A DNA stretch of 64,000 nt from an uncultured Methanomicrobiaceae archaeon (GTDB lineage: Archaea; Halobacteriota; Methanomicrobia; Methanomicrobiales; Methanoculleaceae): contig CAWGXH010000004.1 in the NCBI GenBank assembly GCA_963826525.1, forward strand, positions 1,056,001-1,120,000, read 5' to 3'. Positions 49,026 to 64,000 of the stretch are shown here, piece by piece; position 1 is the stretch's first letter; each line of letters starts with the position of its first letter. A program made the position numbers and the translations under genes. The notes under the pieces are model-generated. The model searched no databases. It was not told the DNA's origin and worked only from the letters and a program-made list of their open reading frames with translations.

Positions 49026-50305
49026 CTCCCTTTCTTACGGTAGACCAGTATATAATACCCTCCACCGAGGAGAACCGCGGCGATGAGGGCGAGAACGATG
49101 GGGTTCGTGACGAGGGAGCCCGACTTCTGGACGAGGTCGACCTGCACCTTCATGGTATCGGATATCTGGCTGCTGCCGAGTGCGTCGCGGTAGCGGATCT
49201 CGGAGTCGAGGCCGTAGGCCTTGAGGGTTGCGTCGGCGTCGACGTTCATCTCGAACCGTGCGGTTCCCTCTGCTCCGGGTGCGAGGTCGCCGAGGTAGGC
49301 GGTGTCGTCGTTGCTGGTGAAGGGGTCGATGGCGCTGATCCGTGCCTGGGCGTTGTAGACGGTGGCGGCACCGATGTTTTTGTAGACGACCTCGAGGACG
49401 CTCTTCTCACCGGGGATGAGGGTGGCGGCCGAGGAGACGACGGCGAAGTCGGTCTTCCCGCCGACCGGGAGGCCGAGGGTGACGGTCTTTGAGGTCGCGG
49501 CGTCGCCGTCACGGTCGGTGTAGGTGACGAGGACGTCGAGCGGGTAGGTCTGCGCCTCGGCGTCGGTGGCGACGGCCGCCTTGAAGGTCACGTCGACGGT
49601 CTCGCCGGGGGCGAACGTGCCGAGGTAGGCGGATGCGTCGGTCGGGACAATCGGGCTCGTGCCGCTCCGGGCGATCCGGGCGACGGCGCCCTTTGCGGTC
49701 TCGTAGCCGGCGTTCTTCAGGGTGAGGTGGACGTAGCCCTCGGTGCCGACGTTCAGGTCTTCGGTCGTGACGTCGAGCACCTCAAGCCGGAGGTCCGGGG
49801 TGATCGTGACCGCGAGCGGGAGCACCTCGGTCTTCTCCTCGTAGAAGTACTGGATGCTGTCGCTGCCGTACTGCTCGGCCGAACTTAAGTAGGTGTAGGT
49901 CACCGTGAGGGGGAGGTTGTAGGTGCCGGGGGCGGCGTTCTCGGCGACCTTGACGGTGAAGGTCGCGGTGACGCTCTTGCCGCCGGCGATGTCGCCGAGG
50001 AACTGCGGGTCGGTCTTGACGGTGACCGGCGCGGCATCGGTGCCGAGCGCGGCGGTGACGAGTTTGGCCGTGTTCGGCAGGTCGTCGCGGGCGACGGCGG
50101 TCGGGTCGACGAACTTGAAGGTGTTCAGCCCGCTGTTCTTCAGGTTCACCGCGAGGGCCATCTCCTGGCCGGGCGAGAACTCGTTGGTACCGGCGATCGA
50201 CGCCGAGAGGGTCGGGCTCCCGTAGAGGTATTTATCGGCGGCCATGGCCGGACCGGTCAGGGCAGCGAGCAGGAGGGCTGCTACCAGAAAGTACTGTATT
50301 CTCAT
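49022..50305 (-). CDS. COG1361 S-layer-family protein
   Basis: Signal peptide, Ig-like repeats (LG-x-x-APGE, APGTY), C-terminal TM plus RKK. Confidence 0.85.
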   Translation of the reverse strand: MRIQYFLVAALLLAALTGPAMAADKYLYGSPTLSASIAGTNEFSPGQEMALAVNLKNSGLNTFKFVDPTAVARDDLPNTAKLVTAALGTDAAPVTVKTDPQFLGDIAGGKSVTATFTVKVAENAAPGTYNLPLTVTYTYLSSAEQYGSDSIQYFYEEKTEVLPLAVTITPDLRLEVLDVTTEDLNVGTEGYVHLTLKNAGYETAKGAVARIARSGTSPIVPTDASAYLGTFAPGETVDVTFKAAVATDAEAQTYPLDVLVTYTDRDGDAATSKTVTLGLPVGGKTDFAVVSSAATLIPGEKSVLEVVYKNIGAATVYNAQARISAIDPFTSNDDTAYLGDLAPGAEGTARFEMNVDADATLKAYGLDSEIRYRDALGSSQISDTMKVQVDLVQKSGSLVTNPIVLALIAAVLLGGGYYILVYRKKGR

Positions 50306-50369
50306 CAGATCACCAGTGTTGTTTCTTGCGGAACAACATTTATTTTCCGTCATTATATATACATATGGG

Positions 50370-51161
50370 ATGAGCGAGTCTAGGGACATTCCTGCGGATA
50401 TTATCGAATCTCTGAAGTCACTGGGGCTTACCAAGTACGAGGCTCTCGTCTATATCGGGCTCCTCAAGGTTGCCGGGGCTACGGCGACCGAGATTCACGA
50501 GATCTCGGGCGTACCCCGCGCATCGGTCTATCCCGTCCTCGACCGGCTGATGCAGAAGAGTCTCGTCAGTGTCTCGCATGCCACGCCCCGGCGTTTTAAT
50601 GCCACCCCGCCTGAGGAGGGGGTAACGATGCTCATGCACCGGATCGAGGAGGATGCGAAGGCCGCCCGCGAGGCGCTCGTCGCGATCTACGCATCGAAGC
50701 ACGAGGAGGAGCGGGGCGATCAGGAGCTGATCTGGAGTATTTACGGGCAGGAGAATATTCTCGGCCGGCTCGGCGAAGCCTTCCGGAACGCAGAACGGAG
50801 CGTGTATATGGTCGTCAACGGAAGCCTCCTGTCGGGCTCGATCCTCCCGCTCCTCAAGCCTGTTTTGGGCTCTGTTGCCGTCGAGGTCGTCACCGAGTGC
50901 TGGGAGGGCGAGATGCCGGAGGGGATGACGGTGCACGTCCACCATCACTGTATGAAGTCAGAGAACTGCGGGCATGCGGAGAAGAGGCTGCCGATGGAGA
51001 ACGCGGGGGTCTTTATCGTCGACGGCGAGAAGGTGCTCGTCTGGATGAGTTCGGTCGGCGAAGCGCCCTCCGCCCTCTACTCGGAATCCGCCGGGTTCGT
51101 GCAGTTCTTCAACCGGTACTGGACCAATATCCGGGACTGGGTGGATAGCACCAGTCAGTAG
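50370..51161 (+). CDS. TrmB-family transcriptional regulator
   Basis: LGLTKYEA...SGVPRASVY-x-VL-x-x-L; C-terminal IVDG. Confidence 0.9.
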   Translation: MSESRDIPADIIESLKSLGLTKYEALVYIGLLKVAGATATEIHEISGVPRASVYPVLDRLMQKSLVSVSHATPRRFNATPPEEGVTMLMHRIEEDAKAAREALVAIYASKHEEERGDQELIWSIYGQENILGRLGEAFRNAERSVYMVVNGSLLSGSILPLLKPVLGSVAVEVVTECWEGEMPEGMTVHVHHHCMKSENCGHAEKRLPMENAGVFIVDGEKVLVWMSSVGEAPSALYSESAGFVQFFNRYWTNIRDWVDSTSQ

Positions 51162-52372: not shown

Positions 52373-54901
52373 ATGGATAATGATAATGAGACCTTTTTTG
52401 AGGTTGATTCAAAGCTTCTCTTTGAATTAGGGGAGTATCTTATACCCAATCGGGCAATTGCTCTGGCGGAGACTGTTAAGAATGCATACGATGCTGATGC
52501 TAGTAAGGTCACCATCACATTACAGAGCATAAAGAAACCTGGGGGAGTAATCGAAATACAGGATAATGGTGTTGGCATTAGTGAGTCGCTTTTTAAGTCA
52601 TCTTGGATGCGCATTGCATCTCTCCATTCTGAACGGAATCCGCTATCTGAAATGTATCTGAGAAGAAAGGCAGGGAAGAAGGGCATTGGCAGATTTGCAT
52701 GCCGAAAGATTGCAAAAAGGCTATACTTGGGACTCAGTTGCTGAAATTGAACCTGGATATAAAGAAAAACTCTCGGCAATTTTTGATTGGTCAAATTTCA
52801 TTCCAGGTTCGAGTGTCAGTCAGGTACCAGTCAGATATCGTATCACTACGGAGGACAGTAAGACGCCTACGGAACGAAACTGAGATTGGAAGAGACTACT
52901 GAATCTTGGAACAGCAAAAACATTTTACGATTGCGAAACGAACTGAATGAACTCTATACTCCAATTATATACAAAACCGAAGAATCCCGGAATGATTCCG
53001 CAAATCGAAGCGATCCTGGATTTAATTATGTGATTTGTAGTGACGAATTTTCGATTGAACCCGATACAATAAATAATTCCTTTTTTAAACTTGCATGGGC
53101 GAAATTAACAGGATCTGTCGATAAGAATGGCTATGCAACCTATAAACTCGCCGTTCAAAATAAAATCGTAAATTCCTTTGAAAAGTCTTTCAGTCGAGAG
53201 GTGGCCTTTGAAGATCTAATCTGTGCAGAACTAGAGATATACATTTTTTCTTATCGTGCAGATTTATTTTATAATTCTGACTGGAAGTATGCCTCAGATA
53301 ATGGAGATTGCGAAAGATCGGGGAGGTATTCGAGTATATGCTGATAATTTTAGAGTCTTTGGTTATGGGGAAGCAGGAAATGACTGGCTATGCCTGAATC
53401 ATGATAGAGCGAGATCAAAGGCGGATGTTGCCCAAGAACTATTTGTATATAAAGCAGAGGCAACTAGGCCTGGTTTGGCTCTTTTTACCAATGGCAGCTC
53501 TGTTTGGATACGTTACATATTTGCAAGATGAAAATCCCCTTTTGGAAATATTGATTAATCGCGATCGGTTTGATCCTCGTTCTCAGTCATTTAAAAATCT
53601 TTAGAAAATTTGTGAGATTAGGTATAGACTTTGCAACGATCTTATACGCAAATGAAATTGAAATTGAAAAAGAGAAAAAGAGGGCGCTGAACGAGGAAAA
53701 GATTAAAAAAGAAAATGAATCTAGGAGAAAGGCCGAAGATGAGGCACGGGTTGCTGAAGAAGGGGCACGGATTGCCGAAGAGGAGCTGAAAGAAGCAGAA
53801 AAAGCAGAAAGAGAAGCAACCGCTGCTCGAATCAATCCTGAGAAGAAGCGACGCCAACTCGAAGCAGAAAGGCGACTAATTGAGATTTTTAGGAGGAAAG
53901 CAGATGCTGAAAATCATCTGCGGGGGCAAAGCAAAACTTTGCGTAAGGTTGAGGAGGAACAGAAAAAAGAAGAAGAACTGATTAGAGCAGAAAATGAGGC
54001 AAGACAGACTGGAAGAGCGGAAGTGGGCAGAAGAGTTAACGGTCAAAAAATTATCTGAAGAAAAAAGAACGCAAGCAATTAATAAATTATTCTCTTCACT
54101 TCAAGAGATTAAGAGCAATGAAGAACAGATAATAAGTTTAAAGCAAGCAGAACTGGATAGGCAGGCAGAGCAATACCGTGAAGAATTCTCCAGATTAAGA
54201 GTGTTAGCCTCAACAGGCACAATGATAAATGTATTCATTCATGAAATTCAGGCATTAATTGGCGATATGCAAATGATGCAGAGCCACTTCACTGCTCTCT
54301 CTGGATACGCTCCCGCCGATGAAAGAGAATTTTACGAAAAAGATTTAGTGATTTTCGATGATCGAATTGACATGATCAACCAGTTCGGACTGTTTAGGCC
54401 TTACATTAGGTCAAGAAAGCAAGCGCCTGAAATGAAAATGTGGGTCATAAAGCCTGTTGTCGAGCAGGTAGTTTCACCATTTAAATGGCAATTAAGGGAT
54501 AGGGGCATTGAGTGGACAAACTCGATTCCTGAGACATTAAGGACGCCACATATGTTCCATTCAGAACTGGTGTCCATTTTCCAAAACCTACTATCTAATT
54601 CGATAAAAGCAGTTTCAGGGACTCCTGATCGGCGGATTGCAATAGTCGGGGCAGATACAGGAGATAACCTCGTGATCAAATTCCTGGATTCTGGAAAGGG
54701 TATAGATAAAGAGCGATGGAAGGAAGTGTTTAAGCCATTTGTGGAGTCGACTCAGAGCCAGATGCTTTTCAGGGTTCGGGAACTGGTTTGGGCTTGAAAT
54801 TAGTCCGGGATTTTGTTCAGGCGTATGAGGGGAGGGTGCGAGTTATTGATCCTCCGGAGAATTGGAAAACTTGTATTGAGATCTCCTTACCTCTGGTGTA
54901 A
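52373..54901 (+). CDS. GHKL (MORC/HATPase_c_3) ATPase fused via a coiled coil to a histidine kinase; many frameshifts
   Basis: ETVKNAYDADA, DNGVG, GKKGIGRFA, YADNFRVFGYG...NDWL; EK-rich coil; FIHEI H-box, NLLSNSIKA, DSGKGI, FKPF, GTGLGL; stop 54901. Confidence 0.78.
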
Positions 54902-56777: not shown

Positions 56778-58343
56778 TCACGAGTTACGAGTAATTAGAG
56801 TTCTGTATAAATATTTACCAAAGAGACTAATTTTTTGATCAAGCACATCGCCATACCACGTACCATTTTGTATTGCAAAATCTCCAATCTGCTCGATCAA
56901 ATCAAGATTTGGCAGTGGCAACTTTCTAATGTCCGTGACATTCACCTGCGTATTCCCACTTATCATTCGATAATATCTGTCAATTACTGATGAGTTAAGC
57001 AATGCAGTAATTCCGAGGATTATATTAGTCTCAATGTCACCCTCGATTCCATAAATATAGTTCAGGTGGTTTTCAAACCCAAGGTGAGTGTATTCTGAAA
57101 AGTTTTCTTTAAATAAGGGTGATGCAGTGATCCTTTTACTCTGACACTTTGATGAAAACCTTTTGATGAGTATATAGTCGTTGTTTGGGACTAAAAGTGA
57201 TTCAGTCCTAATAATTTTAAGAATTGCCTGTCGTTTTCTATAGTTTTCGATAGGCCAGCTCACTCCGGTCAGACCGCAGTGTTTCATCCATAATAACGGC
57301 ACCCATTCTTTTGATGATGAGTTATCGACTAAATACTCTGCCACTCTAAAATCCACTACTTTTCCTGTAGAAACACCCATTCCAAAATCTTTTAGATCGT
57401 TTTCCCACGAATCTACAACTTCAAGAATATTGAGATCATCTGGTGAATTTGGGATTCTTATGTAGGAATGTGCGTTTTGCGTCACTATAACGTCTTTAGG
57501 TTGCGCGTACAATGTCTTGATATCAGAGAATCGGCTATCTAACGAGCTGGTCACTAGAATCTTGCCTTGGCTATTATTTTTAGTTCCATTAAAAATTATT
57601 ACTTCTTGTTCTACCTTATCGTCACTAAACACCTTTGTGCGTGACTTAAAGATATGGATTGCTTTTAGGGATGAGTTATGAATGAACCACTCCCTGACTT
57701 TTTTATAATACAAACCTGAGCAAAAACTTCTGGGAGTGATAAAAACAAATTCTCCGCCGTTCTTTAGCATGCTCGCTGATAATACCATGAATAGTGAGTA
57801 AATGTTAGGCTGTCCCTCAACGAAGGTCTCCAATAGACGAGAATACCTAGATGTTGCTTTAAGTTTGTAATAGGGTGGATTTGCTATTACTATGCTATAA
57901 CGGTCATGTTCTTCAAGAGGCCATAATGCATCCGACTGTACGTAATGTGAATTGTTGAGAATAAAGTCCATGTTTCTAACAGTGATAGTAGCATCATGCC
58001 CTAATTGTATAAGTTTTGTCTCAAAATCGTGAGTGGTACTTTTCAAGTATGGGGTAAGTTTTTCATCAATTTCCCAGGCGTCGATGGTGATGCTGATCGG
58101 GTCTTGAATTTCATTGGCAATTCTATTGCAGAGAGCGGCAAGTAATACTCCTGTGCCCGCTCCAGGGTCTAATATCTTTAATTGCTCTTTATTGATGTCG
58201 ACCAAACTGGCCATGTGCGTTGCAATGCTAACAGGTGTGAAAAACTGGCCACAACGTTTGCGGTTGACGTTACTGTTTGTATTTGTATATTCACTTGCAT
58301 AGTGGTAGGAGTTATCAAGGATCTTCTGCGCTGTTTGCTCCAT
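56778..58343 (-). CDS. N6-adenine DNA methyltransferase (gamma class, Eco57I/BsuBI-PstI-like)
   Basis: GQFFTP, ILDPGAGTG (motif I), IANPPY (motif IV), ITPRSF-x-SG-x-Y, VSTG-x-VVDFR, FENHLN, SGNTQVN. Confidence 0.92.
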   Translation of the reverse strand: MEQTAQKILDNSYHYASEYTNTNSNVNRKRCGQFFTPVSIATHMASLVDINKEQLKILDPGAGTGVLLAALCNRIANEIQDPISITIDAWEIDEKLTPYLKSTTHDFETKLIQLGHDATITVRNMDFILNNSHYVQSDALWPLEEHDRYSIVIANPPYYKLKATSRYSRLLETFVEGQPNIYSLFMVLSASMLKNGGEFVFITPRSFCSGLYYKKVREWFIHNSSLKAIHIFKSRTKVFSDDKVEQEVIIFNGTKNNSQGKILVTSSLDSRFSDIKTLYAQPKDVIVTQNAHSYIRIPNSPDDLNILEVVDSWENDLKDFGMGVSTGKVVDFRVAEYLVDNSSSKEWVPLLWMKHCGLTGVSWPIENYRKRQAILKIIRTESLLVPNNDYILIKRFSSKCQSKRITASPLFKENFSEYTHLGFENHLNYIYGIEGDIETNIILGITALLNSSVIDRYYRMISGNTQVNVTDIRKLPLPNLDLIEQIGDFAIQNGTWYGDVLDQKISLFGKYLYRTLITRNS

Positions 58344-59237: not shown

Positions 59238-59313
59238 TGAATAGAGTTCTTCTTCAAATGCTGAAAACCCTTTCCAAGCGTTTTTTGAAACCTGGAATAG
59301 ATTTACCTAAATA

Positions 59314-59491
59314 ATGCCTCCCCCTCCTACAGCAGCCTCCCCTACCTCTTCGCCGGCTGTGCCCTGGTCGGGCTGCTCGTCATCTCCTCGGCGCATACGT
59401 GCTCAGCCCCGGGGAGGCGAACCCGCCCCTCTCCTTCGCCCCTCCGGCGAGATACGTCGGGAACGTTTTCCCTCTCATCGTGGAAAACTGA
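59314..59491 (+). repeat. Diverged copy 1 of a ~175-bp small-ORF unit (frameshifted paralog of 62051-62227)
   Basis: GCCGGCTG(T/C)(G/A)CCCTGGTCGGGCTGCTCGTCATCTC(C/T)TCGG is shared with 62090; conceptual peptide YSSLPYLFAGCALVGLLVISS...SPGE...SF-x-PP-x-x-YVG. Confidence 0.75.
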
Positions 59492-59523
59492 CTGTAAAAT
59501 GCATATCGCCCTGATACCCGCCC

Positions 59524-60634
59524 TCACCCCCGTTCCCTCCGTGCTTCCAGCGCCTCGATCTCTTCGAGCGTCCTCGCCTCACCCACCCGGTCGCCGACCT
59601 CCCGTGCGACCGCGAGGCTTTCATGGTAGCAGTCCAGCGCCTCGCCGTACCGGTCCGTCTCCGCATACACCTTCCCGATGCTGCGGAGGAGAGCCGCTTC
59701 GGCAGGTCGATCTCCCAGATCCCGGTAGATCCGGCGGCTTCGCGTGTACGACGCCAGCGCGGCATCGTAGTCTTCCAGGCGGAGAGTACGCGTCCCCCAG
59801 GGAACAGAGTGCGCCCGCTTCCCCCTGCCGGTCGCCGGCCTGCGAATACTTCTCAAGACTCTGTGCTATCAGCTCGAGCGCCCTGGCGTACCGGAAGGTC
59901 GATAAGTAATATTTTCCTTTTTCGAGCAGCATCTTGGCTTCGCCGCTCGTATCCTTGATCTTTTCGGCGAGCTCGACCTGATCTCGTATCTGCGATGTGA
60001 AAGAATCGATGACTTTCACGATGAGGTCATAATGTGTCCCCTTCAGACGATGGGATACCGCAGATTGAGTTTTGCCGATCTTTTCTGCGATCTCCTTTTG
60101 CGTGAGCCCTTCCAACGTCAGCATCACGGTTTCTGCTTGTCTCTTTGTATATCCATTGATAGTGTTATCCACGGCAGCGCAAAAAATCGGCAAAAAAGCA
60201 TTCGACTTCTTCCCAGGGCGTTTTTACAGTCAGGTTTTGCCCGGCCTTTTTCATCTGATCCAGTTCGAGACCCGAAAGGCTGAAACGCCTCTCCGTCGCC
60301 CTCGCCGGCCGAACCGTCTTTCGGCAGGTAATTGACGGTTCCGATCCCAACCGCAATTCTTGCATCCAGCCGGGTTTTGGTATTATCGGGATCAAGCCCG
60401 GAGATGAGCTTGAGGCGTAAGAGGATGGCATCCTTCAATGCAGTCTTCAGGCTTTGAAGAAACTCCCTGAAAACTGTCCCCACGGAATATCGAAAACGGC
60501 ACGGCGTACTCTTTTCCGATCTCTGCCAACGTATTCTTCAAGTGGCGGATACATTCTTCACCGCATGCTTTTTTGATCTCTCTGGATTGGATTACATCGC
60601 CGGTGAGAACAGCATACATTTTTCTTCCCGTCAT
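59524..60634 (-). CDS. SatD-family protein (nucleotide-cyclase-like domain + HTH) with C-terminal TPR repeats; several frameshifts
   Basis: YAVLTGDVIQSR, FRGDSFQ, ARIAVGIG, GDGEAF...SG...LD, TQKEIAEKIGKTQSAVSHRLK, then GDRQGEA/GDRPAEA/GDRVGEA TPR units. Confidence 0.8.
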
Positions 60635-60676
60635 GACATCATTGCCTTCTTCAAAGGTTCCTTTCTTGCGATAAGA

Positions 60677-60839
60677 TATGAATGTATTTATTCATGTTTT
60701 GAGAATATTAATATTATAGTTCATAGTATGGAAGTATGAGTAATTTTAATCATAAGAATGGGATATGAATAAATTTGTTCATATCTGTAATATATGTGTG
60801 TCTTAGTTCATATTTTTAGATTATGAGGGAATATTCATA
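60677..60839. repeat. Array of six palindromes, consensus TATGAR-N8-TTCATA, at a 29-bp period
   Basis: ATG/ATT half-sites start at 60678, 60707, 60736, 60765, 60794 and 60823, each closed by (T/A)TCAT. Confidence 0.88.
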
Positions 60840-60975
60840 CCTTTCAGATGAGGTTCTGTAGCGGCTCGTTCTTGCGGTAAAGATGGATACGGTTTCGTAT
60901 TATTTAGAGGCTGCGGATAGCATGCTCAAATTCAGCGATCTTCCGGTTAACAGATCGAAATCTGGATAGACCCCT

Positions 60976-61941
60976 CTAGAGCATTTGAAAGAATTCTGAT
61001 AGATATTGTATTATTTTCTCAATCCCCCCCAGATTGATTAGGTAATTGGATGTCGCTCCTATAAAAACGGCAATCGCGAAGCTTAACAGTGTTCCTAAAA
61101 TGATATATTCCGATCTCTTCGAATCGTTAATTCTGAAAAGTCCTTTTGCTGCTACAAGGAATCCAATTGCTGTGTAGTCGTTTACGAGGATAAAAATCAA
61201 TATCAGAATACGCTCTACATATCCGATCAAGCGGCCGGCGTTGTCTAAGCTGCCTTCTTGCGTAGTGTCCACATCTTTTCGCCAGAGCTGAGTGATTCTA
61301 TTGACGAGTATCCCGCTAGGCCAGAGAATCAGAAGGAATGCAATAATCGCAATCCATATTTTGATTATCTCAACTGGACTTCCAAAGGGATATGGGATTG
61401 GGATGTGTGGATAGAGCAGTACCAAAACGATGAGTAGAACAAACCCGTGGGCGATCTGGTCGATGAAAAATATATGGATGGGTTCATCTTCAATTTCTAC
61501 TTCATGCTCTCCCTGCTCTTCCTTATCCTCCTGATCTTTCTCATCGTCGTGATCGCCCTTACAATTTACTTTCTTTCGGAGGTTTGCCATCCAGTGGGAC
61601 TTCAACCCGTCTATGACGAAGTGCGATGCCGTGACGAGGATAAATGCGTATAGGAAGGTAATCCATAATTGCGGAAGGAACTCCGGAAGAGATGATGGAT
61701 GTTTTAAGATCAGTATGAAGTTCCAAAGGTTGGCAAAAAGAAACGTCAATACCCCGGCTACAATGGCATGACATATCAGGCACTTGGAGTGCCAACCATT
61801 ATTGAACCGGTTTTTAACCCAGGCATCTGGCTGGAAAACAAAATCGGTCAAGATATGGGCGAGAATTAGGCGAAGGAACAACTCGATGCCATAAGGTATT
61901 AACGTTTCAGTCAAGCAATTGTTATTCTGAACTCCCACCAC
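60976..61941 (-). CDS. DUF3307 (SatE-like) membrane protein
   Basis: LAHILTDFVFQ, H, SHFVID, IDQIAH, NAGRLIGYVER, GFLVAAKG-x-FR, SEYIILGTLLS. Confidence 0.85.
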   Translation of the reverse strand: MVGVQNNNCLTETLIPYGIELFLRLILAHILTDFVFQPDAWVKNRFNNGWHSKCLICHAIVAGVLTFLFANLWNFILILKHPSSLPEFLPQLWITFLYAFILVTASHFVIDGLKSHWMANLRKKVNCKGDHDDEKDQEDKEEQGEHEVEIEDEPIHIFFIDQIAHGFVLLIVLVLLYPHIPIPYPFGSPVEIIKIWIAIIAFLLILWPSGILVNRITQLWRKDVDTTQEGSLDNAGRLIGYVERILILIFILVNDYTAIGFLVAAKGLFRINDSKRSEYIILGTLLSFAIAVFIGATSNYLINLGGIEKIIQYLSEFFQML

Positions 61942-62819: not shown

Positions 62820-63150
62820 GCCGGGAACGCTCGCCTACGGCAGCGGCGGCACCCTCCACATCGCGGTGGATGCCGAGCACTACCGGATCGAGCCTGAGGA
62901 TGTCAAACACCTGCTCTTCTCGGGCAGGGTGGTGCCGGTCGTGCAGGACCGCGTCATCCCGGACGGCGGCACGCCGATGGGCAGGACGACGATCGAGGGG
63001 CACGCGACGGTAAACTGCACCGGCAAAGCCGTGGCGCTCCACACCCGTGCGGGGTCGTTCATCATCCCGCTCGTCAGCGTCCAGCGGGTGGCACGGGGGG
63101 AGGCGGTCAGCGTTCCGCTCTTCCCCCTCGTCCCGGGGGTGACAGAGTGA
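62812..63150 (+). CDS. Hypothetical protein of the mobile element
   Basis: 112-aa ORF with GGAGG upstream and GTGA overlap with the primase. Confidence 0.65.
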   Translation: MPEPGTLAYGSGGTLHIAVDAEHYRIEPEDVKHLLFSGRVVPVVQDRVIPDGGTPMGRTTIEGHATVNCTGKAVALHTRAGSFIIPLVSVQRVARGEAVSVPLFPLVPGVTE

Positions 63151-64000
63151 GCGACGCGATTATCGAGGCGGTGCAGGTCATCGCCCCGGAGGGCGTGGTG
63201 GAGGTGCGGGCGCTCGCCGAGAGTGCCGTTCACTCCGGCTACTTCGACGACCGCAGCGAACTCGCCGCACGGGCGGAGGTGCTCGACGCCGACCCGGAGG
63301 TCGGGGGGATCTACGTCACCCTCAACCCCGTGAACCCGGCGCTTCTCGCCCGGCGGGCGAACCGGATCAAGCTGCGCCTCGGTAAGAAAGACGCGACGAC
63401 GAGCCGATGCCGATATTACGAGAAGGCGGTGGCTGCCGGTCGACATCGACCCGGTGCGGCCAAGCGGCGTCTCGTCGACCGATGCGGAGCACGATCTCGC
63501 GCTCGCGACGGCGGATCGGATCGTCGCCTGGCTCAGCGAGCAGGGGTTCCCGGCGCCGGTGCGGGCCGACTCGGGGAACGGCGCCCACCTCCTCTACCGG
63601 GTCGACCTCCCGAACGACGAGGTAGCGACCGGGCTCGTGAAGGGCTGCCTCGCGACCCTCGACGTTCTCTTCTCGAACGAGAAAGTCACCGTCGATACCG
63701 CGAACCACAACGCCGCCCGGATCTGGAAACTCTACGGCACCGTCTCGAGGAAGGGCGACAACACGGCGGAGCGGCCGCACCGCCGGTCAAGGCTCCTCAC
63801 GGTTCCTGACGAGATTGGCCTTGTTCCCGTGGAGCGACTCGCCCATCTCGCCGGGCTGCTCCCGGCGGATGAGCCGCCAGCGCCGAAGAAGGGCGGGGGG
63901 ATCGACCTCGCCGCCTGGCTCCCCGATCACGGGATCGCCGTCCGGTCGGCGAAACCCTACCGGGGCGGCACGCTCTACACCCTCGAGGACTGCCCGTTCT
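63147..64000 (+). CDS. AEP-superfamily primase-polymerase (partial; frameshift near 63405)
   Basis: YVTLNP, then in the shifted frame WLPVDIDP (DxD), DSGNGAH, VDTANHNAARIWKLYGT; ends at CPF, a likely Zn-finger start. Confidence 0.78.

Follow-up and report, generated by a model that had tools for sequence, protein, structure and literature searches.

In a 64,000-nt stretch of a contig from an uncultured Methanomicrobiaceae archaeon (CAWGXH010000004.1, positions 1,056,001 to 1,120,000; hereafter the window, whose own numbering is used throughout), six short palindromes stand at a 29-bp period between a satD-like gene and a gene for a DUF3307 membrane protein. We find it likely that these six sites are the cognate, cooperative autoregulatory operator array of SatD dimers, where binding, cooperativity and the sign of regulation are what we infer. 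The element is best read as a phased autoregulatory operator, a known kind of element, located here at an apparently decayed gene. Among the explanations considered, this one has the best support because the array follows the satD/DUF3307 pair, its half-site shifts with the recognition helix of SatD, SatD is the sole DNA-binding protein of the pair, and it is predicted to form a dimer. Binding sites for the dimeric helix-turn-helix (HTH) part of SatD, with a possible role in autoregulation or as a scaffold for the enzyme, had been proposed in a preliminary description of this DNA; the arrays found across the family, the covariation with the helix and the modelled dimer all speak for autoregulatory sites of a SatD dimer.

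The window units are imperfect palindromes with a common half-site (Table 1). Units 1-5 lie exactly 29 bp apart, measured from start to start, and the start of unit 6 is also in register: its ATGAG arm, on the satD side, holds the 29-bp phase, while the opposite arm is 2 nt nearer than in the 18-nt units. All six units are preceded by T and five of them are followed by A. Re-reading of the sequence thus reproduced the six palindromes initially described at 60678-60823, together with their phase and their flanking T and A. The same description had the array filling the gap between DUF3307 and satD, which it does not, as it occupies 162 of the 341 intergenic bases; its estimate that the array ends ~45 bp from the ATG was close, since unit 1 starts 44 bp from the satD start codon (first base at 60634), with 43 bases between. 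Relative to this ATG the sites are placed at –61, –90, –119, –148 and –177, and the short one at –206. The G+C content of the array is 23%. Autocorrelation of the region 60675-60842 rises to 0.56 at a lag of 29 and to 0.53 at one of 58, the remaining lags being at about 0.24-0.42.

A generic scan for phased palindromes (5-nt arms at least 4/5 complementary, gap of 2-12, any period) detected five units in succession within 60640-60975, between the two genes. The longest run in 300 dinucleotide-preserving shuffles, a check that the preliminary description had itself called for, comprised two units in 166 cases, three in 133 and four in a single one. We therefore rejected a chance origin of the array, as the shuffles fail to reproduce the five-unit run. 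The exact motif is present in four copies in the whole genome (3.06 Mb, 16 contigs), two of them inside the array, and no further pair of sites with up to two arm mismatches was found at a multiple of 29 bp anywhere in these 3.06 Mb. The window array is a real, non-random feature, and its genome has no other such cluster. By our definition of an array (at least two 18-bp palindromes with a shared half-site and a 28/29-bp period, no more than about 330 bp upstream of satD or of the partner gene), the window carries one.

Repeats of more familiar kinds were also considered. Tandem Repeats Finder, run on 60400-61100 with a minimum score of 30, returned no rows, and because of this empty result a simple tandem duplication was set aside, in agreement with what had been claimed earlier. 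An array of clustered regularly interspaced short palindromic repeats (CRISPR), that is, near-identical direct repeats of ~23 nt or more with unique spacers of similar length, was discounted both then and now: the units are non-identical, only 5+5 nt of 18 are repeated, and the period is 29 bp.

The preliminary description had further suggested that regions upstream of SatD homologs be compared. In 53 of 56 loci the SatD homolog adjoins DUF3307, and in the three exceptions the DUF3307 match is within about 330 bp of the locus end, which leaves no room for satD. A blind scan of whole loci revealed 28/29-bp phased palindromes beside satD in many groups, each with its own half-site: Alteromonas, Salinimonas, Idiomarina, Paraglaciecola, Bacteroides, Ignavibacteria, Acidobacteria, Thermaceae, Micrococcales, an Asgard archaeon and other Methanomicrobia. 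The layout recurs in methanogens as well as in bacteria of marine and soil habitats. A tolerant detector was then applied to 51 distinct 323-bp satD-upstream regions of archaea and bacteria, the window included. Phased 18-bp units at 28/29 bp numbered at least three in 24 of the 51 regions and at least two in 39 (one unit in 12 regions, two in 15, three in 16, four in 6, five in 1 and six in 1). At the control periods of 22/23, 25/26, 31/32, 34/35 and 38/39 bp, three or more units were seen in 0, 1, 0, 0 and 0 of the 51 regions, and two or more in 5-11 of them. Mononucleotide shuffles reached at least three units in 1 of 1020 cases and at least two in 56 of 1020; for random 323-bp windows taken elsewhere in the same loci the corresponding values were 3 and 52 of 1000. 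The suggested comparison thus yielded arrays of at least three units in nearly half of the regions, with a half-site that covaries with the HTH helix (see below).

A strict criterion (5/6 outer pairs, three consecutive units) was applied to 53 whole loci with a total of 319,839 bases. At period 28 it found six chains near satD and none elsewhere; at period 29, four near satD and two elsewhere, both of the latter between satD and DUF3307 (loci L038 and L041). Twenty-five other periods, pooled, gave five chains. For the window's own genome the same criterion returned 30 chains over 27 periods in 3.06 Mb. The palindromes at other SatD-like loci are 18 bp long, up to 22 bp, and the six units of the window are among the highest counts, the arrays of the family reaching six to seven. 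Most bacteria have the order array, satD, DUF3307, whereas in the window the order is DUF3307, array, satD.

The closest counterparts of the window array are found at nine Methanoculleus-type loci (L007-L015), which provide eight distinct upstream regions, L014 and L015 being identical. All nine have DUF3307 followed by an AT-rich array, a conserved leader and satD. Their ATGART-N6-AYTCAT sites occupy one of two registers counted from the satD ATG, either –65/–94/–123, in some loci also –152 and –180, or –61/–90/–119/–148; both the 29-bp register and the distance to satD equal those of the window. Linkers and cores vary from locus to locus, and across 34 units of this clade the information is in the outer arm positions, linkers having about 0.1-0.5 bit. 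The genes of this clade are GC-rich, the array nonetheless AT-rich. The ATGAA/TTCAT half-site is common to the window and the Methanoculleus-type clade only. A minisatellite was rejected as well, since similarity is confined to the arms and Tandem Repeats Finder found nothing.

The same 34 units bear on a further possibility raised at the outset, namely that the array, once transcribed, functions as an RNA with six short hairpins. A stem of 5-6 bp is possible for each unit, and position 5 of the Methanoculleus-type units combines G with T in 13 cases, each a potential G-U pair of the sense RNA. However, the stems would be short and A/U-rich, and for the minus strand of 60640-60860 the fold z-score is –1.78, with 7 of 200 shuffles as good and a nearly unstructured centroid. 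Rfam gave no match at E up to 1. The 204 arm pairs of the 34 units divide into 137 Watson-Crick, 28 sense G-U, 17 antisense-type and 22 other combinations, and the arms drift toward or away from one consensus, compensating changes not being seen. We thus regard an RNA role as extremely improbable.

Half-sites could be called for 38 loci and were compared there with the protein. The recognition helix TSQSAVSYRL goes with the half-site ATGART, ISQEAVFYRL with ATAAGx, TSQQNVTKHL with ACAACC, VSYQAVHKQL with TCAACC or ACAACC, KSRVTVNKAL with GTAGCC, and ISQSALNRRF with ATGCAC, while three helices, TSRQNISERL, TSRQNVSLHL and ISRQMVTKSL, share GCAAGC or GCAACC. The helix of the window, KTQSAVSHRL, groups with the ATGART class. 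All 10 loci with arginine at helix position 3 have G at half-site position 1, and 27 of the 28 loci without this arginine have no G there; counted per distinct pair of helix and half-site, the values are 8/8 and 19/20. Half-sites differ by lineage and track the SatD recognition helix.

This covariation is relevant to the idea that the sites are bound by a host factor outside the module, for example a regulator of the Lrp/TrmB type or a nucleoid protein that wraps AT-rich DNA. The low G+C content of the array would suit such a protein, Lrp-type regulators use regularly spaced sites about 30 bp apart, and a TrmB-family gene is located at 50244-51161. Yet the array accompanies satD/DUF3307 across phyla and in both domains, its half-site varies with the SatD helix and not with the host, and the motif cluster was not found elsewhere in the genome. 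A host factor is accordingly a very unlikely binder.

The SatD family, whose name presumably derives from the Streptococcus mutans sat operon, is represented in Pfam by PF16264, and the window gene does not reach the gathering score of that model (29 bits): its first fragment scores 20.3 bits, and 17.2 bits were obtained in the genome search. The intact relatives at L007 and L013 score 23.3-23.5 bits, and four Methanomicrobia genes are at or near the cut-off (36.3, 29.7, 29.7 and 28.7 bits, the last 29.1 with frame neighbours). A PF16264 match at E of 0.001 or lower was seen in 18 of 35 aligned homologs, the best at 5e-24. Homology to SatD is provided by a jackhmmer search from the L007 protein, which collected 53 open reading frames (ORFs), among them the ones above the Pfam cut-off, with E-values between 2e-97 and 9e-15. 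In its HTH part SatD has weak matches to the sigma-70 region 4 and HTH_3 models; NCBIfam returned sigma-70/YlxM-type HTH matches only, weak and below cut-offs.

The structure model of L007 SatD has a predicted local distance difference test (pLDDT) value of 93 and a predicted template modelling score (pTM) of 0.91. By Foldseek, residues 1-140 resemble GGDEF domains, class III adenylyl cyclases and a bacterial cyclic UMP (cUMP) synthase (7r65), at E of 2e-5 to 3e-4 and TM(query) of 0.36-0.48; beyond residue 140 the model is helical and includes the HTH. D13, G52 and D53 are invariant across the 35 homologs, and D13 and D53 would be the metal-binding aspartates of the nucleotide cyclase superfamily fold. 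Judging by the model, SatD joins a GGDEF/class III cyclase fold to a sigma-70-region-4-like HTH. A homodimer of the L007 protein was predicted with a score of 0.60, the best of three controls giving 0.00; runs agree in at least 100% of contacts, and pLDDT of the partner is 82 or higher. Of proteins with solved structures, 20 of 30 that are pairs of one chain and 1 of 23 that are single chains reached the mark, counts that are only approximate because our own alignment was used. The predicted interface is symmetric and formed by helices 142-156 and 200-214, between which the HTH lies. The model supports binding of two SatD copies to each other, without showing it; as the interface is confined to C-terminal helices, such a dimer fits the palindrome reading and would leave the cyclase-fold domains free.

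In the operator array that we propose, one SatD dimer would occupy each 18-bp palindrome, with the two arms, about 12-13 bp apart centre to centre, for that reason facing successive major grooves. Given the constant 28/29-bp register, adjacent dimers would touch, and two to seven dimers would load cooperatively; contact is suggested because a spacing fixed within 1 bp from Thermaceae to methanogens is otherwise hard to explain. A loaded array would switch satD off, i.e. act in negative autoregulation, because unit 1 abuts or overlaps the sole AT-rich stretch at a plausible archaeal distance for a TATA box and B recognition element (BRE), and the conserved leader is next to it. The TATA box and the ribosome-binding site of satD are presumed, from position, to be within the leader or to overlap unit 1. 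In most bacteria an array ahead of satD-DUF3307 would control both genes; in L038 and L041 the array stands ahead of DUF3307 only.

The cyclase fold allows for a different emphasis, in which the array would serve in the first place as a DNA scaffold: its register would bring the N-terminal, cyclase-fold domains of adjacent DNA-bound SatD dimers together and so turn nucleotide synthesis on or off, the product would act on the DUF3307 membrane protein, and transcription control would be secondary. GGDEF/class III cyclase-type enzymes require two catalytic domains to meet. The modelled GGDEF/class III cyclase/cUMP-synthase fold of the N-terminal domain, the three invariant residues, N-terminal domains left free in the predicted dimer, a period constant within 1 bp from Thermaceae to methanogens and a partner gene that codes for a membrane protein are all in line with a scaffold. 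Expressed as a mechanism, the array would be an allosteric DNA template: the 28/29-bp register would set the free cyclase-fold domains of neighbouring dimers face to face, the number of loaded dimers would determine synthesis of a nucleotide signal, and the signal would gate DUF3307. The arrangement resembles the pyrimidine cyclase system for antiphage resistance (Pycsar) and the cyclic-oligonucleotide-based antiphage signalling system (CBASS) in that a cyclase-fold gene stands beside a gene for a multi-pass membrane protein, and the cUMP synthase 7r65 is among the structural matches. But neither SatD nor DUF3307 matched a PADLOC defence model, many loci have two units only and some one or none, and the invariably promoter-proximal position of the array is already explained by plain autoregulation. 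We know of no Pycsar or CBASS system that carries an HTH and an operator array. A scaffold as the primary role therefore seems unlikely to us, and the template mechanism is likewise, in our estimate, an improbable one.

Several observations weigh against the autoregulatory operator that we favour. With 10.5 bp to a turn, a 29-bp period makes up about 2.76 turns, so that successive dimers would spiral around the DNA and not share one face. The covariation counts come from related loci, and the association of arginine with G rests on ~3 independent lineages (Alteromonadales, one Bacteroides and one Pseudomonas). The strict criterion missed the window array, units 2 and 5 being too degenerate, though the generic and the tolerant scans caught it. 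With the tolerant detector, a phased array was not detected in 12 of the 51 upstream regions. Locus L005 has repeats of 18 bp, and L006 and L019 of 42 bp, in place of the 28/29-bp array, and in L038 and L041 the array is upstream of DUF3307 and not of satD. Finally, satD in the window is broken, and the array may have no binder here.

Table 1. Array units and flanking genes in the window (positions in window numbering; arms written 5′ to 3′ on the forward strand)
Feature	Position	Strand	Length	Pattern or product	Remarks
Unit 1 (satD-proximal)	60678-60695		18 nt	ATGAA-N8-TTCAT	arm complementarity 5/5
Unit 2	60707-60724		18 nt	ATTAA-N8-TTCAT	arm complementarity 4/5
Unit 3	60736-60753		18 nt	ATGAG-N8-ATCAT	arm complementarity 4/5
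Unit 4	60765-60782		18 nt	ATGAA-N8-TTCAT	arm complementarity 5/5
Unit 5	60794-60811		18 nt	ATGTG-N8-TTCAT	arm complementarity 3/5, one arm degenerate
Unit 6 (satD-distal)	60823-60838		16 nt	ATGAG-N6-TTCAT	arm complementarity 4/5
satD-like gene	59957-60634	–		cyclase-fold domain (predicted) and C-terminal HTH	broken by three single-base insertions
Leader	60635-60677	–	43 nt		between unit 1 and satD start; sequence conserved with Methanoculleus-type leaders
DUF3307 gene (PF11750)	60976-61941	–	321 aa	membrane protein	intact; conserved partner of satD

Both genes of the window pair are on the minus strand and are read in the order DUF3307, array, 43-nt leader, satD. The DUF3307 ORF matches PF11750 with 68.9 bits (cut-off 23), and its nearest proteins, at 54-59% identity, are from Methanoculleus and related metagenome-assembled genomes. 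SatD is rare in the class, with a match in 4 of 401 genomes searched. That a satD gene stands beside the array had been stated in the preliminary description, and by the jackhmmer evidence a satD-like homolog is indeed there, but the gene is not intact: three frameshifts had gone unseen. Intact relatives code for a 227-aa protein, and the window homolog is spread across three frames, with residues 1-63 in the first, 65-118 in the next, about 121-146 in the third, and the remainder in the first again. The breaks are near 60440, 60278-60280 and 60190-60200, and each is one extra base; of the three insertions, one falls within six consecutive T, another in a CC pair, and the remaining one outside any run. 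Compared with L007 and L013, the pieces reach 71-79% identity in the middle piece. After the HTH, the stop of the relatives is missing and the frame reads through into a GC-rich TPR remnant (TPR_12, 65 bits; 59524-59856 and 59621-60193, both on the minus strand), which follows directly. This looks like an old junction of the island with a host gene.

The broken copy is the only SatD match in its genome (87.6% complete, 5.3% contamination). With three frameshifts in satD and no second copy detected, the array may be without a binder in this genome; it is probably an orphaned operator, unless the three insertions are assembly errors. Among listed sequencing runs that contain this sequence none is of RNA, and the two of DNA cover 60281-60417, 60448-60598 and 59900-59999 only. 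One contig of run X1, a public metagenome run (151 nt, depth 2), aligns to 60281-60417, and the 13 letters before 60281 mismatch the window; as we read them, they equal the window minus one base at the second satD break, plus two substitutions that would be synonymous. This single, low-depth contig hints at the existence of an intact satD variant and at a break that is strain-specific or an assembly error.

The satD/DUF3307 pair is located at the right-hand edge of a low-GC island at 52-62 kb, which has ~40% G+C (38-44%) compared with about 60-69% around it and about 60-65% in the genome, and which contains a GC-rich patch at 59300-59950. Such a setting, a ~10-kb low-GC island in a genome of much higher G+C content, could indicate that the array consists of iterons or is a partition-type centromere of a mobile element, bound by an HTH protein that the element encodes; phased repeats under dimeric DNA-binding proteins are typical of such sites. 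However, the neighbours at 56.8-61.9 kb (the satD-like gene, DUF3307, the TPR remnant, an Eco57I-type methylase gene and an ORF with no Pfam match) give no Rep or Par match, and arrays of relatives are in chromosomal contexts of native G+C content, always at the satD/DUF3307 pair. An iteron or centromere function is, in our opinion, scarcely probable.

Other features of the island and its surroundings are as follows. The Eco57I-type N6 DNA methylase gene (56778-58343, minus strand) is intact and codes for 521 aa, with matches to PF07669 (66 bits) and PF02384 (60.8 bits). At 52886-54797 (plus strand) there are four overlapping ORFs in alternating frames, the last with an HATPase_c domain, and they may be one larger gene split by frameshifts; if so, this would point to general decay of the island or to indel errors where it was assembled. 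At 63147-63999 (plus strand), beyond the island, two GC-rich ORFs overlap in different frames and may be another split gene; their sequence gives the impression of a primase-type replication protein. Pfam gave no match for these two ORFs, nor for most of the island ORFs scanned, and none of its matches there accounts for the island. No tRNA genes that would mark an integration site were found at 48-64 kb. A scan for sigma-70 promoters and terminators gave counts near the shuffle mean, its model being bacterial and inapplicable to an archaeon.

Individual loci of the family show further variation. In L018 (Bacteroidales), six near-identical 28-bp units, each containing ATGCA-N8-TGCAT, are found at 2100-2330, with an autocorrelation of 0.99. 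Sequence similarity makes this locus look like a recent expansion through unit duplication, and since its units are near-identical, arrays probably grow in this way. In L038 (Ignavibacteria), a six-slot 29-bp array at 2785-2965, between satD and DUF3307, has three ACAACC-type and two ATAAGC-type palindromes, with one empty slot between the two kinds. In the clade of L005, L006 and L019, the repeats upstream of satD are inverted repeats of the GATAAT/ATTATC type. In L003, L004 and L017 (Methanomicrobia), a protein of about 578 aa carries the SatD-like region as its N-terminal part.

Among described systems, the E. coli hipBA promoter offers a close parallel. It has four TATCC-N8-GGATA operators that are bound cooperatively, with repression, by the dimeric HTH protein HipB (PMC3920265). 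Their separations are 10, 21 and 10 bp, which makes 28, 39 and 28 bp centre to centre, and Shewanella hip operators are 16 bp long and 34 bp apart (PMC4150777). hipBA and the SatD array share an 18-bp unit of 5-N8-5 layout and linkers of 10-11 bp, and two of the three hip steps are 28 bp. The proteins are unrelated: HipB is a Cro/Xre-type antitoxin that acts with the HipA kinase, while SatD would combine a cyclase fold with a sigma-70-region-4-like HTH and is paired with a membrane protein. Hip spacing is neither uniform nor conserved, in contrast to SatD arrays, which have one period and up to 6-7 units in bacteria and archaea. The window array is not of the hipBA type, which has HipB and HipA genes downstream, as its flanks are the SatD-like gene and DUF3307.

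Evenly spaced dimer sites that give rise to a higher-order nucleoprotein complex are also present in multi-site promoters of Lrp and the feast/famine regulatory proteins (FFRP) and in ParR-parC centromeres. These involve other protein families, genes for which were not found beside the window array, and the half-site of the SatD array covaries with SatD. A literature search found no paper on the regulation of SatD or DUF3307, nor on an array of this kind.

satD and DUF3307 form a widespread pair of no known function, and the conserved, easily recognisable architecture of the proposed operator is its first testable molecular property. The array supplies a DNA ligand for binding and structural work, along with a table of helices and half-sites from which recognition can be decoded. 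In annotation it would mark the satD promoter and aids the calling of degraded copies such as that of the window. From Thermaceae to methanogens the period hardly varies, which implies that SatD and DNA form a defined assembly of higher order, and such an assembly, together with the predicted cyclase fold, raises the question of whether DNA loading serves to control enzymatic activity. If the array did act as a template, satD and DUF3307 would constitute a self-contained module templated on its own DNA and conserved in bacteria and archaea.

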